Source: a virus (Duplodnaviria > Heunggongvirae > Uroviricota > Caudoviricetes). Taken from it: DNA of 40,322 bases. The position numbers were made by a program. The stretch's first letter is position 1, and each line of letters opens with the position of its first letter. Positions 33,001-39,000 of the stretch are shown here, piece after piece. The stretch lies in IMG/VR virus record IMGVR_UViG_2529293138_000012, positions 1 to 40,322 of that record. The stretch is one strand, 5' to 3'.

Positions 33001-36000
33001 GATGTAGCGAGCCTGACGCTCTGCATACCCGAGAGCAAGGCGTTCGGATTTTTTGGCTTCAATCCACGCTTCAGCAGCAGCGATCGGATCGTCAAAGTTT
33101 GGAATAGTGTTTGAAGAAGGCGTTGCTTTACGAAAATACGCCTGCTCCATTTTTTCGAAGAACGACCAGGCCTCGTCTGTATCGACGATTTTTGACATGC
33201 GGGCAGAGCCGAGTTCTGTCCAGAGAGTGAGTGAACGCGCATTTCTTCCAACAGAGTGACCAATAGTCACTCTGTCCTTAAATGCTTTAAGAGCATCACC
33301 AGTTAAAAGAAAATAATGTTTCCCATCTTCAAAGCGCTCAAGATTGCGCGACAGATTTTTACGGATATTAGCTTCATCCGTGCCATATCCCGCCGCCAGC
33401 GTTTCAGTGGTAACTACGCGTACCCCCTGCCACTCAATCACTGGCAGGTTTTCAGGGTTGACTAATTTTTGTTTATTGATCATCATTAAAACCCTCACTA
33501 CTTAGAACAAGTCGGGTTGGCGATTGCCATTGCTGCCCGACTTTTTCTTTACCTTCCGTTCTGCAACTGTTGTCTGGCCTAGTGCCCATTGCCGCGCACG
33601 AAACAAGCAATCATCAAACATCGCTCCTTTGCGGCTGGCCTGCGAGCTACGGCGGTAGTAATCCAGTCCCCGGCATGCCCCCCCCTGGCAACAATTTCAG
33701 GGAAGCCCTCCGCCACCAGCTTTTCCGTTATGTGTTTGCAGATAAATTCTTCTGGAGTCATGGTTCGTCTCTTCAATTTGCCTGTCTTTTCACCACTTCA
33801 GGCTCGGTGGTATCCTCTAAAGTCCCTATTACTTGAGAGGTTTTGATATGAGAGGAAAAATTGTTCATGTAGAGCATCGCATTGGCTGGATTGCTATCCG
33901 TGACGATCGTGGTGCCATCACTATCGCTGAAATCATTGGCGGATATGATGTTGAAAAAGGGCACATCATCTCCGGCAATCTCCATTCACTAGGTAGCGAG
34001 GTATTCCATAACCTAACAACATCAGAAGAAATGGATGTTATGGTCGAATACATCGGCCTAACCGATAATCAGGCTATTGCTGCAATCCAAAGATGCGGTA
34101 GATAGCTCTACGAAAAAGCTTGCAATCCTTCAGAATCCACTCGCATTGTTTTGTCGAGATCTTTTTTTCAGCGGGTATAAATTCAAGCTCGCGATTTACC
34201 TCCAGGCCGCGCTTTGCGGCCTGTTCAACGTTGCTCACAAATTCCAAAAGCTGCTGTGCCTTTTTGGCGGATAATTGCTGCATATCTATTCCCATCACTT
34301 CTAATCCTCTGTGTGCACTAAGCTTGGATTTGAAATTTTGCGTAACGAATCAGGAATTCCATCTTCAGGGTGAGGATAAAGATCTGGCCTTAAGCCATGT
34401 GGCGTGACCTTCCATGCAACTACTTCACATACGCGTAAAACGAAACGAGCAGGAATTGTGTTTTTTGAAAACCACTGATTCACCGCTTGCGGCGTCACAC
34501 CAAGATTTCGAGCTATGGCATTTTGCGCAATTAATGCACTAAGTTTGTCGTAATCATTTCCTTTCATAACAAAGCACCAATATTAACTTTATAGATCAAG
34601 AATACATCAAGTTTAAATTAACATGCAAGTTGCAAAAGGATCGAATACACTAAAATCAAGTAAAGATTTATCCTTGTAAAGAAACCCACAGGATTTGGTC
34701 ATGAAGAACGTCAAAAACACGGAAAATCGAATAGCCGCAATGCTGAAAGCAAAAGGATGGACTCAGGCTCAACTGGCCCGCAAGTTAGGTGTGAGTGCGC
34801 AATCAGTGCAGTACTGGACAACAGGAAAAACATTTCCACGGAGTGATAAGCTCGCTCATTTATCAGAGATTAGCGGTTATCCACAATCCTGGTTCTTAGG
34901 TGAAGACTCCTCACCAACCTTTTCCTCGCAAGAGAAACACCAGACAAGAACAGATAGCGTCGTGTTTAATGTCCTTGATGTTGAGTTTAGTTGCGGTGAT
35001 GGAACTCATGTCCGTGGTGACTTGATAGATGTAGTGCGCTCAATAGAACTTGATCCTGAATATGCCCGACGCCTTGTTGGAAATCGGGCATTCAAAAATA
35101 TAGAAATAGGTAACGCCAGAGGAGACAGTATGGCTCCCACAATCTCACCTGGCGACCTTCTTTTTCTTGATAAGACAGTAACTTATTTTGATGGCGATGG
35201 CATTTATGCATTTTGTTTTGATGGAGAATGCTACGTGAAAAGACTTCAAAAAATTGGAAGCAAAATCATGGTGTTATCTGATAACCCCAATTATCAACCA
35301 TGGAGTATAGAAAAAGAGGGGTTAGCTCTGCTTTATATCCAGTCTAAAGTGATCTCATCAGTACCATTCAATATAAACAGATTTGGTTAGTCTTTGATTT
35401 TAACGGGCTTTGCCCGTTTTTTTCTGCCTAAAACACACGATATCAATTTTTTCTTGACAGCCTATTTCTCAAAGCATAATATCGCACCATCAATTATAAC
35501 TTGATTAAGTTCAATTTAAAATTGTTGGTGGATATATGAAGACACTAAAAGCAACTCCAGAAACAACTAATTTTATCAACTGTGGCTGTATTACGCTTAA
35601 TAACTTAGAACTTGATTCCTTTGCATTAAATATTGCGAATTTGCTAAGTGCTGTACGCACATTCCATCTTCTGGATTGTGCTCGCTCAAAGGAACTGGGC
35701 ATTGAGGTAATGGAATTTATCCATGAATATGCCCTATCTGCGGCTTCTCCTGCACAACAAAAACAATCCTTCCCCAAAAGCTGGCTGGTTAACCTTCGCA
35801 CCCAACGCGAAACCTGCGGCTTAACAACCGCCGAACTCGCCAGACTCCTCGATCTCGATGAAGATATCATCATCCAGTGGGAAAGCGGAGAGTACGAACC
35901 TACTATCAGTATGCTTATCCCGCTGGCAAATGTTCTTGGTTGCGACCCGATGTGGTTATTGACTGGTAGCAATGCTGCAAAGGAGTAACAGTCGTGAATA

Positions 36001-39000
36001 GTAATATCCATGACAATTTCGAAGGTATTTGTCTGGCATCGGATTCATTTGCAATAAACATTCATAGTCTGTTGTGCGCTGCGCAAGTTTTACAGATGTC
36101 AAATAATCAGAATGCAAAAACATTAGGTGATGAAATCCTGTCTTTTGCATGTGAATATTCGAAAGCCGCTGTCAAAAAAGAATTAGCGCAATAACAATGA
36201 ATATTCCATGAATGTTTATTACGGTTTTATCGCCGTGGATTGTTGCAACCTTTATTCGCAGGAGATTATGTTATGACTTTCCTGAAACATAAGACATCGT
36301 ATAAAACTGCCTGCCTCATTGCACAACATGGAGATTCTTATCTTCATATAGCCAACCTGTATTTGCGCAAAGCATATGGGAGATAAATCAATGGAAGAAA
36401 AACGACAGAACATAGCACATGAAAAAGTAAGAGTATTGCTAATCATTGAAAATGGGAAAGTGATTTACTCAAGACATCTGCTGGATAATGAATTCGCCTG
36501 TAGCATGGATACATTTCTGTGGATGGCCAAAAGAGCTGGCTACACGATTATTCCACCAGCAAAGGAACAAACATTATGAACAATTTTGAATTCAAACCAG
36601 AAGCGACAGCTCATGGCATAAAAATTGGCAATACAACCGTTGATTATGTTGAGGCCGTACAGCGGCTTAATGATGGTGAATACGACAATCCATGCTGGCA
36701 CGGTTTAAGAATCATGCAATGTATTGCAGAAGCCGATGATGCCGGATTACTGGGAAGATTTTCAGTCGATCTGAAGATCGCTCAATGGCGCTGGCTGTAT
36801 GTGGCGACGTTTATCAGTGAAGAGGAAAACAAGAACGGTACCATTGATATCCCTAACGATAACGGAACCACAGATCACGCAGTTATTTATAAGGGAAAGC
36901 ATGGTTGTATGAGTATATACCCGGGGCCACTTCGCATTGCTCTGCAAAACCATGTCGAATGGGGATTCATTGAAAAATATGGCGAAGCTGAAGGTATGGG
37001 ACGAGTTTTGTTTATCTATCAAAAAATGCTCATCGCAGATCCTGATAATGGATTCATTGTCTCTGCTATGGGGCGCGAAGGGCTTGAATTACTTCTGGAT
37101 GAAATTATTCACGATCTGAATACTCATGGTATGCCAGAAGCACCAGTGACACATTAAAGATTAAATATGGCAAATCAGAATAAAATTAATGTATTTCAGG
37201 TTGAATCAAAACATAAAACACCAGTAATAAAACACGTTCGCCGCCTTACACGCCTCTATACACCAGAAGAGTTTATGGCAATGCCAATGATAAAGAAATT
37301 TATCCGTGATAATCCAGGTCACGTTGCTATAGATAAAAACAACGGAGAAATAATGTTATCCCGCGAGCTTGCCGAAATTTACTGTAACGTGAATAACGGT
37401 AAAAAGTTAAAAAAGACAATCCGAAAGATATCAGAAAGATCATAAAGGTAAGAATATATGATGACAGTTTCCCCCACAATAAAGATTGATACAGTCATGA
37501 ATACTGGTTTAGCTGTCATTGGCTGGTATTACATCCTTTTCAGAGCTGGTCAGATGCTGACTTCTGTTTTTCTCAAACAGTGGACAAAACGATGTAAGCA
37601 GGAGCAACGCCAGAAGGCATTAGAAGCGTTCTATGACGCATTTGAACTTAGCCGCATTGAACCAGGCACAACAGCCAGGATAGCGACAAAAGGCGACCTG
37701 ATGATCGTAATGTTCCGACAGGAGAAAACTACCAGTGAGTGAGATTGACTATCAGGAACTGCGTGAGGTGACAGAAGCAATAAAAGTAGTGGCAACACCG
37801 CCAAAATTACGTGCGTTTCGCATGAAGGTCACACCGCAGGTTGTGCTGGCACTACTGGATGAGAACGAAAGCATGTATCGCGACCTGATGGCTCGCAATG
37901 GTGAGATTGAAGGACTTCGAAAGCTGGTTGCTGAGTTCGAAGGGTACAGGTCGAATCTGATAGTTACCATAAAAGAGGTTACAAATGCTTGATAGTTTTG
38001 CTCTTGTTGCGCTGGTTGGCATTTTAGCATTGTTTTTGGTGACATCCGGTAATTGGAGACATAAGTGAACGACAAAGAACTGATTAAAGAAATTAAAGAG
38101 CGCATTGGCAGTCTTGATGTTCGGGACAATATTGAGCGCCGGGCTTATGAAATTGCTCTGGCATCGCTGGAAGCAGATCCAGTGGCATGGATGCATGTAA
38201 ATAACGGAATCGGAATACCAGCAATAACAAGGAGTAAAGAGGTTGCAGAGAGTTGGTTATCAAATGGCTGGTATGTTCAGCAACTATATATAGCCAAGCC
38301 AGTACCGGTAATCCCTGATGAGGTGTTGTCAGCAATCAGAAATGTTGCCAGGATTCGCGCCAATTTCGCTGATTTTGACGGTGACAGAAGAGGTATCGGT
38401 GATTGCCTGGATGAGGCTGAGCAAGAGTTGATCATTACCATTAACAAATACGCCTGTCATATTACAGCAGAACAGCGTAGAAGGTGAAGTGATGACCTGG
38501 CCTGAAACATTCACAATGGCAGGAATTACAATGGCAGTAACATTGATTGTGTGTTCAATTTGCCACTGGGGATAGCCACATGTTCGCTCTGATTCAACGT
38601 GGACAGATATACACGGATAGCACTGGTTATCCGGTAAAAATTATTCGCAGTACTGATCACTCGGTATTCTTCCGGAGAATGGATGGTAATACTGGTCGAG
38701 TACGCATCGGTGAATTCAACAACCTGTTTGAACATATTGACCACCAAGAATATCACAAAATTCTGGCTGACACTGAGCAGGAAGCTCATCTGAAAAAATT
38801 ACGCTCCTTGAAAAGGAAATAACAAATGAATAAAGCGTTTGAGCTAAGGGTACGCCAGCGTTACGGCAATCGCTATGACCTGACGCGAGATGTTGACGGC
38901 TTCTACTGTCGTGAAGTTGTGAAACGGATGTTTGAAGTGAAATATGGTGCCACCGCTGTGGCCTGAATGTTGTGTGAGGTGATGCATGGGACTTGATTGT

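Follow-up and report, generated by a model that had tools for sequence, protein, structure and literature searches.

A predicted pL control region followed by an acidic helix-turn-helix protein and a paralogous helical hairpin at the N position of a lambdoid prophage

The 40,322-nucleotide (nt) viral record IMGVR_UViG_2529293138_000012, analysed over its full length and hereafter called the window, is a complete lambdoid prophage whose + strand, equivalent to the leftward direction of lambda, reads as the leftward half of the immunity region. Here, we describe what follows the repressor gene cI on this strand (Table 1): an intrinsic terminator, a pL-like promoter interleaved with operator-like palindromes, and the first two open reading frames (ORFs) of the early-left operon. 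The first of them, ORF150, lies where lambda has its N gene and encodes a 150-amino-acid (aa) protein with a C-terminal helix-turn-helix (HTH) domain. The second, ORF66, encodes a 66-aa protein related to the N-terminal domain of ORF150.

Table 1. Features of the immunity region, the early-left operon and the late regulator gene in the window.
Feature	Position	Strand	Evidence or remark
Q antiterminator, classical	26222-27052	-	
cro-like gene, 88 aa, divergent from cI	34301-34567	-	Pfam YdaS_toxin/Cro-type HTH E=1.4e-12; P22_Cro 7e-5; PHROG 35
OR-like cluster, three ATCAA-N7-TTGAT-like sites	34576-34592, 34606-34622, 34655-34671		pattern search, at most 2 mismatches
cI-like repressor gene (N-terminal HTH, C-terminal S24 LexA-type autopeptidase)	34701-35390	+	Peptidase_S24 4e-17; HTH_3 5e-8; PHROG 4 transcriptional repressor 9e-54
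Intrinsic terminator closing the cI transcript, predicted tImm analogue	35402-35425	+	hairpin followed by T7
Operator-like site ATCAATTTTTTCTTGAC overlapping the -35 element	35442-35458		1 mismatch to ATCAA-N7-TTGAT
pL-like sigma-70 promoter TTGACA-17-TAATAT	35454-35482	+	10/12 consensus positions
Perfect 17-bp palindrome ATCAATTATAACTTGAT at the predicted +1	35489-35505		sole match without mismatch in the window
Weaker operator-like site	35510-35526		ATCAA-N7-TTGAT pattern search
ORF150, 150 aa, phiP27 L10 family	35536-35988	+	HTH_3 aa 87-141 E=1.7e-10; PHROG 4836 over full length 4e-76
Shine-Dalgarno sequence AAGGAG of ORF66, inside the final ORF150 codons	35980-35985	+	strong, 8 nt before the GTG start; tight coupling
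ORF66, 66 aa, free-standing helical hairpin, family of the phiP27 L08 C-terminal domain	35994-36194	+	PHROG 4587 4e-31
Remainder of the early-left operon, small ORFs without assigned function, to the window end	36195-40322	+	ORF list
Excisionase	38986-39195	+	PHROG 2917; sole early-left PHROG match (36195 onward) not labelled 'unknown function'
Integrase, runs past the window end	from about 39123	+	ORF list

Terminator, promoter and operators downstream of cI

The original prediction for this locus held that cI is followed by a clean intrinsic terminator and not by a rexAB-like pair, and this is what we find: a rexAB-like pair is absent after cI, and 12 bases past the cI stop codon (35390) begins the hairpin AACGGGC-TTT-GCCCGTT (35402-35418), which has a 7-base-pair (bp) stem with five GC pairs and a loop of three and leads into a run of seven T. 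The terminator folds at -11.2 kcal/mol (z = -3.8), a value reached by none of 200 shuffled sequences. It is the same in four of five aligned loci and missing from the fifth, the Shiga toxin (Stx) phage Stx2_14040, and phages of other immunity often carry a different terminator at the equivalent place. Its predicted role is that of lambda tImm.

The -35 hexamer TTGACA (35454-35459) starts 29 bp beyond the T-run and is separated by 17 nt from the -10 hexamer TAATAT (35477-35482), so that the near-consensus promoter foreseen about 30 bp past the terminator is indeed present. A match of this quality is by itself not above chance, as a 16-kb scan returned 27 promoter-like sites where 29 were expected. 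We hold the promoter to be real not for its consensus match, but because (i) both hexamers are invariant across the five aligned loci, one of which is just 78% identical and has diverging flanks, (ii) the layout of cI, terminator, TTGACA-17-TAnnAT and HTH gene recurs in phages of other immunity, and (iii) the promoter is flanked by operator palindromes.

These palindromes follow the pattern ATCAA-N7-TTGAT. With up to two mismatches allowed, the pattern has 33 matches in the window, six of which fall inside the 272 bp of two intergenic regions (about 0.2 expected): three lie in the 133-bp gap between cro and cI and three around the promoter. Both half-sites of ATCAATTTTTTCTTGAC are kept in Stx2_14040 and in locus L054, and the pair at 35489-35526 is conserved in loci L002 and L054. 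In the Stx2a phage Stx2_14040, where the region is 78% identical and CI 93% identical, the hexamers and the operator half-sites are retained, but the spacers and the terminator are not. Phages whose CI is at most 40% identical to that of the window display the succession of cI stop, often a terminator, TTGACA-17-TATTAT and a gene of the L10 type, the family to which ORF150 belongs, with other repeated motifs in place of ATCAA-N7-TTGAT. As the layout is thus kept while the motifs differ, the ATCAA-N7-TTGAT sites are predicted to be CI operators specific to this immunity.

The two hallmarks of a left operator (OL) and pL region are both found here, in that the promoter is collinear with the operon that contains xis and int and is overlapped by at least two operator-like sites whose sequence recurs in the cI-cro gap. 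With three such sites flanking it and its layout recurrent, the promoter is pL-like, as had been proposed, and very probably controlled by CI. Like lambda OL/pL and tImm, the region lies after cI in the same orientation, has an insulating terminator and a strong sigma-70 promoter overlapped by operators of the OR type, and drives an operon that ends in xis and int. Unlike in lambda, rexAB does not intervene between cI and the terminator, N and nutL are missing, and the operon of about 3.6 kb contains no recognisable exo/bet/gam-type genes. The cis-acting part of the locus is therefore of the ordinary lambda OL/pL/tImm kind, minus rexAB and N/nut, and is not new.

A promoter-like sequence of the opposite orientation, TTTAAA-16-TATAAT (10/12 consensus positions; 35493-35520, - strand), lies within the pL leader and operators and faces the 3' end of cI. 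This sequence is preserved just in part in Stx2_14040 and could simply result from the AT-rich nature of the palindromes.

ORF150 and ORF66 share a helical hairpin

The product of the first gene was expected to be a 150-aa protein with a C-terminal XRE-type HTH in the N position, and the HTH_3 match at aa 87-141 bears this out (Table 1). The match scores above the Pfam gathering threshold, and the AlphaFold2 (AF2) model displays the five-helix fold of an XRE domain at residues 81-143 (nt 35776-35964 for the HTH). This domain is connected by a linker to an N-terminal hairpin of two helices (residues 26-45 and 49-69; nt 35611-35742), which is preceded by a disordered segment (residues 1-24). The mean predicted local distance difference test (pLDDT) score of the model is 71, with values of 80-92 in the folded parts.

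ORF66 is modelled as the same hairpin alone (helices 16-34 and 39-65; pLDDT 89.6). It aligns to residues 24-69 of ORF150 with 39% identity over 46 aa (BLASTP E=1e-8), and ORF150 also matches PHROG 4587, which is ORF66's own family. The paralogy of the 66-aa ORF and the ORF150 N-terminal domain, suspected at the outset, is thus supported by pairwise alignment, family profile and predicted structure.

Searches of BFVD and the PDB with ORF150 are dominated by generic XRE domains, the nearest relatives being the DNA-binding domains of repressors, and a fold search with the hairpin returned non-specific helical hairpins only. In PADLOC and NCBIfam, ORF150 has generic HTH matches and ORF66 has none, and a toxin-antitoxin or defence-system reading was dropped on these grounds. 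The label 'CII-like' attached to PHROG 4836 was also rejected: ORF150 has no Phage_CII match, and its gene is part of the left operon, following cI, whereas a CII-type gene would be expected after cro in the pR operon.

Both the HTH core and the hairpin family carry near-invariant or invariant cysteines (C94 and C136 of ORF150; C13, C28 and C53 of ORF66), which are unusual in small cytoplasmic regulators and may simply be buried core residues.

Distribution, forms and selection of the family

The pair belongs to a family whose prototype is found in phage phiP27, where L10 directly follows the repressor gene L11 and where ORF66 corresponds to the C-terminal half of L08. The genes of the window resemble phiP27 L10 and L08 (PHROGs 4836 and 4587/5451) in their position after a cI-type repressor gene and in their family matches, that of ORF150 covering its full length, but ORF150 is a 150-aa form with one HTH, whereas most relatives are about 230 aa long and have two tandem HTHs, and the type of the N-terminal domain varies with immunity.

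A search of the protein database with ORF150 returned 158 homologues, almost all of them encoded by E. coli, Shigella or Salmonella. Homologues are also present in 25 phage records, among them long-tailed Stx1a, Stx2a and Stx2d phages of E. coli O145:H28, and by megablast the HTH segment is carried by no fewer than 268 of 5426 complete E. coli genomes. A profile of the hairpin recovered only 13 clusters from 1.84 billion representative proteins, and a scan of genome contigs gave one irrelevant match. The family is narrow and enterobacterial, and these searches revealed no distant annotated relative that would be of help. Its members occur in toxin prophages of the Stx1, Stx2, Stx2e (phiP27) and heat-labile enterotoxin (LT) types.

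The 150-aa and ~230-aa forms differ by a clean in-frame indel of 240 nt, bounded at equivalent points of both HTH repeats (window 35860-36000 compared to 4325-4770 of locus L050), and the sequence downstream is collinear into the ORF66-type gene. Such a pattern points to unequal crossover or duplication. Regulators of 153, 164 and 182 aa represent further C-terminal forms, and in locus L051 a two-HTH gene is split into ORFs of 147 and 71 aa and is an apparent pseudogene.

Across 66 loci, the two domains of ORF150 differ in their conservation. The HTH is almost invariant regardless of immunity. Between phages of different immunity, the proportion of nonsynonymous differences (pN) in its 52-codon core is 0.008-0.05, compared to a proportion of synonymous differences (pS) of 0.14-0.41, and pS reaches 0.6 when 58 codons are considered. 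The pattern indicates that the HTH is under strong purifying selection and has not merely been shared recently. The N-terminal hairpin domain, in contrast, is variable, and its type pairs one-to-one with the CI type over five CI types; the ORF66 profile also aligns in register with two of the other N-domain types (E values of 1e-4 and 5e-4). The junction of this mosaic lies inside the ORF150 gene at the domain linker, at about 35740-35780. As the N-domain co-segregates with the cI/cro type, the hairpin belongs to the immunity module, and the HTH together with the ORF66/L08 type to the module downstream. An ORF66/L08-type gene follows the regulator gene in nearly all 66 loci.

A short left operon without N

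No early ORF on either side of the immunity region matches an N family in Pfam or PHROG, and no plausible ORF with an arginine-rich N-terminus lies near pL. A search downstream of the promoter for nut-like boxA/boxB elements was also negative: boxA has no match in the pL and pR leaders, and Rfam elements are absent from 33500-39200 at the gathering threshold as well as at E<=5. Classical N/nut antitermination is therefore rejected. An RNA element of the put type is unlikely, as the pL leader is only about 46 nt long and folds into nothing but a weak AU-rich hairpin. Gp17 of phage mEp021, which is N-like and has an arginine-rich motif, is unrelated. One exact boxA consensus, CGCTCTTTAAC, does occur at 39112-39122 on the - strand, where about 0.04 would be expected by chance, but it faces against the direction of pL transcription and falls within the excisionase gene, so that it is probably coincidental.

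The distance from pL to int is about 3.6 kb, and no strong + strand intrinsic terminator was found from 35425 to the integrase gene. An operon this short and free of strong terminators may need no antitermination, which is the simplest reading of the locus. The suggestion of an alternative mechanism of early antitermination is not borne out: besides the short operon without a strong terminator, a Q gene is present, and no link between ORF150 and either RNA polymerase or RNA emerged. The analysis gave no evidence that antitermination here follows a new mechanism.

A model for a hairpin-modulated regulator pair

Combining these findings, we propose that the region comprises the OL/pL control region and the first two early-left genes of an N-less lambdoid prophage, and that these genes encode a hairpin-modulated pair reminiscent of SinR and SinI, a reading to which we give about an even chance. 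In the well-supported part of the model, CI would hold pL off through OL in the lysogen, and the terminator would stop cI transcripts before they enter the left operon. SOS-induced cleavage of the LexA-type CI would allow pL to fire, with ORF150 and then, by coupled translation, ORF66 as the first products, and the operon would extend from pL to xis/int without the aid of N. More tentatively, the hairpin would serve as an oligomerisation module. ORF66 would pair with the hairpin of ORF150, titrating or remodelling ORF150 oligomers and in this way setting the amount that is active. Because phages of unrelated immunity carry almost the same HTH, its target would not be the immunity operators but a feature shared by these phages or one belonging to the host.

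The comparison to SinR/SinI of Bacillus subtilis (PDB 1b0n) was suggested by the architecture: in both cases, an XRE HTH is joined to a two-helix module, and an adjacent small gene encodes that module alone. The differences are considerable. In the prophage, the hairpin is N-terminal, so that the order of the domains is reversed, the small gene lies downstream and not upstream, the hairpin bears no sequence or specific fold likeness to the helical hook of SinR/SinI, and the HTH is acidic. Homology to SinR/SinI outside the HTH was not found. On paper, ORF150 and ORF66 resemble SinR/SinI, but they are not members of that family, and a heterodimer of ORF150 and ORF66 that changes the activity of the regulator is our proposal by analogy.

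Several observations weigh against this model. The first group concerns DNA binding. The HTH of ORF150 has a net charge of -6 and an isoelectric point (pI) of 4.3, compared to +5 and 9.9 for the HTH of CI from the same phage. In the HMMER alignment, Asp108-Glu109-Asp110 of ORF150, at the start of the recognition helix, replace Ser-Asn-Val of P22 c2, which we take to be the base-contacting residues in the 2R1J structure. ORF150 has Glu, Thr or Gly in place of several basic residues of P22 c2, and R11, R14 and Q37 of P22 c2 have their counterparts in R88, R91 and Q114. Within 1.3-1.5 kb of the gene, the only palindromes common to all immunity types lie inside conserved coding sequence. The acidic recognition helix and the lack of a shared flanking palindrome make DNA binding by ORF150 doubtful, and sequence-specific binding must be regarded as uncertain.

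The second group concerns the partnership of the two proteins. The N-domain of phiP27 L10 has no detectable similarity to the ORF66 hairpin, although L08 is present in that phage, and across the loci the ORF66 subtype follows the C-terminal form of the regulator and not its N-domain type. That ORF66 and the N-domain do not covary is the main internal argument against obligate heterodimerisation. Lastly, the consensus scan did not reveal pR or pRM, and literature searches found no functional study of any L10/L08-type gene.

Alternative readings of the gene pair

The acidity of the HTH leads to the foremost alternative, in which ORF150 does not bind DNA and the XRE fold is reused as an acidic, possibly DNA-mimicking surface that binds a basic partner after derepression. 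We consider it rather unlikely. The partner could be the DNA-binding domain of a repressor, which would make ORF150 an antirepressor acting by positive feedback like MOR on CI in phage TP901-1, or a host nucleic-acid-binding protein, and the variable hairpin and ORF66 would supply oligomerisation or specificity. The whole family is strongly acidic (net charge of -8 to -18, with ORF150 at -8), the charge being pronounced in the HTH domain itself. Residues D108, E109, E116 and E121, located on and after the recognition helix, are invariant in the family, and position 110 is always D or E. These acidic residues align not only to the presumed base-contacting Ser-Asn-Val of P22 c2 but also to its Arg40; they are surface residues under strong purifying selection, and a shared flanking palindrome that could serve as a binding site was not found. 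On the other hand, the domain matches HTH_3 strongly and is closest to genuine DNA-binding domains of repressors, the counterparts of R11, R14 and Q37 of P22 c2 are retained, and the 230-aa forms carry tandem HTHs on one chain, as DNA binders typically do. Charge by itself does not exclude DNA binding.

TP901-1 CI/MOR and other XRE-fold antirepressors offer a parallel in that a small early XRE-fold protein is encoded beside the repressor gene and may act by protein-protein contacts. MOR, however, is the product of the divergent gene in the Cro position, and the phage described here already has a Cro-like gene.

Taken further, and more speculatively still, proteins of the phiP27 L10 type might constitute a new class of immediate-early factor, with an XRE fold that has lost DNA binding and acts as an acidic DNA mimic sequestering a basic DNA-binding protein. 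If so, ORF150 would sequester residual or heterologous repressor or a host factor, committing the prophage to lytic growth, and the immunity-linked hairpin and ORF66 would set specificity and dosage. The family would then help to determine, in a way not recognised so far, how efficiently prophages of the Stx1, Stx2, Stx2e and LT types are induced and how much toxin they produce.

It is highly improbable that the terminator, the promoter and the genes together make up a cassette of the moron type that is expressed in the lysogen in place of rexAB and serves superinfection exclusion or host modulation, not an early lytic unit. The genes do occupy the rexAB slot of lambda and have a strong promoter of their own after a terminator. 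The promoter, however, is bracketed by OR-type operators, one over the -35 element and one at +1, which is a repressive geometry; no terminator follows ORF66, and the genes run in line with the rest of an operon whose last genes are xis and int.

The least probable reading makes ORF150, with or without ORF66, a functional replacement of N that, independently of classical nut sites, acts as a processive antiterminator on RNA polymerase or Rho: it draws on position (ORF150 comes first after pL, at the place of lambda N, and N/nut were not found) and is countered by an acidic protein that has the fold of a repressor DNA-binding domain and no arginine-rich motif or RNA-binding features, by a leader of about 46 nt with a weak AU-rich hairpin, and by a left operon that offers no strong intrinsic terminator to overcome.

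Other genes and RNAs of the prophage

Downstream of ORF66, a stretch of small ORFs of about 3 kb precedes the excisionase gene, and no exo/bet/gam-type genes were recognisable in the left operon by PHROG or Pfam. On the - strand, the genes beyond cro encode antirepressor-type, replication, Q, enterotoxin-A-like, lysis, and lambda-like head and tail proteins. Judged from the Q gene, late control looks conventional.

In the early-right operon, a 74-aa ORF at the cII position (34074-34298, - strand) has no family match, and the segment 32411-33498 (- strand) encodes an ORF6N/KilAC antirepressor-type protein of 290 aa and a Lar-like restriction-alleviation protein of 72 aa. Two tandem copies of C4 antisense RNA, each terminating in an intrinsic terminator, are found with isrK and the c4-a1b1 target at 31167-31724 (- strand), all above the Rfam gathering score. 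The C4 copies lie inside a 555-aa ORF (30747-32414, - strand) that has Ash and Rha domain matches and is probably not a single real gene. The region looks like a c4/ant module of the P1 immI kind and precedes the replication genes within the pR operon.

A 263-aa ORF (22944-23735, - strand) matches the heat-labile enterotoxin A chain (PF01375, E=1.7e-102) and sits between Q and the holin/lysozyme/Rz genes, which is the classic position of toxin genes in converting phages. An ORF of the size of a B subunit was not found after it, the gap to the next gene being only 256 nt. The C-terminus of the enterotoxin-A-like ORF resembles a signal peptide, so the B gene may have been deleted or fused. A 110-aa ORF upstream of the enterotoxin-A-like gene (23754-24086) has no Pfam match.

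Significance

The interest of the locus lies in the gene pair at the N position, which belongs to a family that has already been sequenced, and not in the cis elements. The pair is under strong purifying selection, is carried by at least 5% of complete E. coli genomes, and is predicted to be expressed first upon prophage induction. In the Stx phages of E. coli O145:H28, the type of the early region determines the efficiency of induction and the output of Stx2, and a 2.9-kb segment containing cI and three additional genes is exchanged between early-region types, the molecular basis of the effect being unexplained (bioRxiv 10.1101/2024.03.06.583675). The value of the present analysis lies in a concrete hypothesis, open to testing, on what toxin-converting prophages may express as an immediate-early function, and in the unusual acidic HTH. 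According to this hypothesis, ORF150 and ORF66 would form a hairpin-mediated, SinR/SinI-like pair whose conserved acidic HTH would act on a target that is not specific to immunity.

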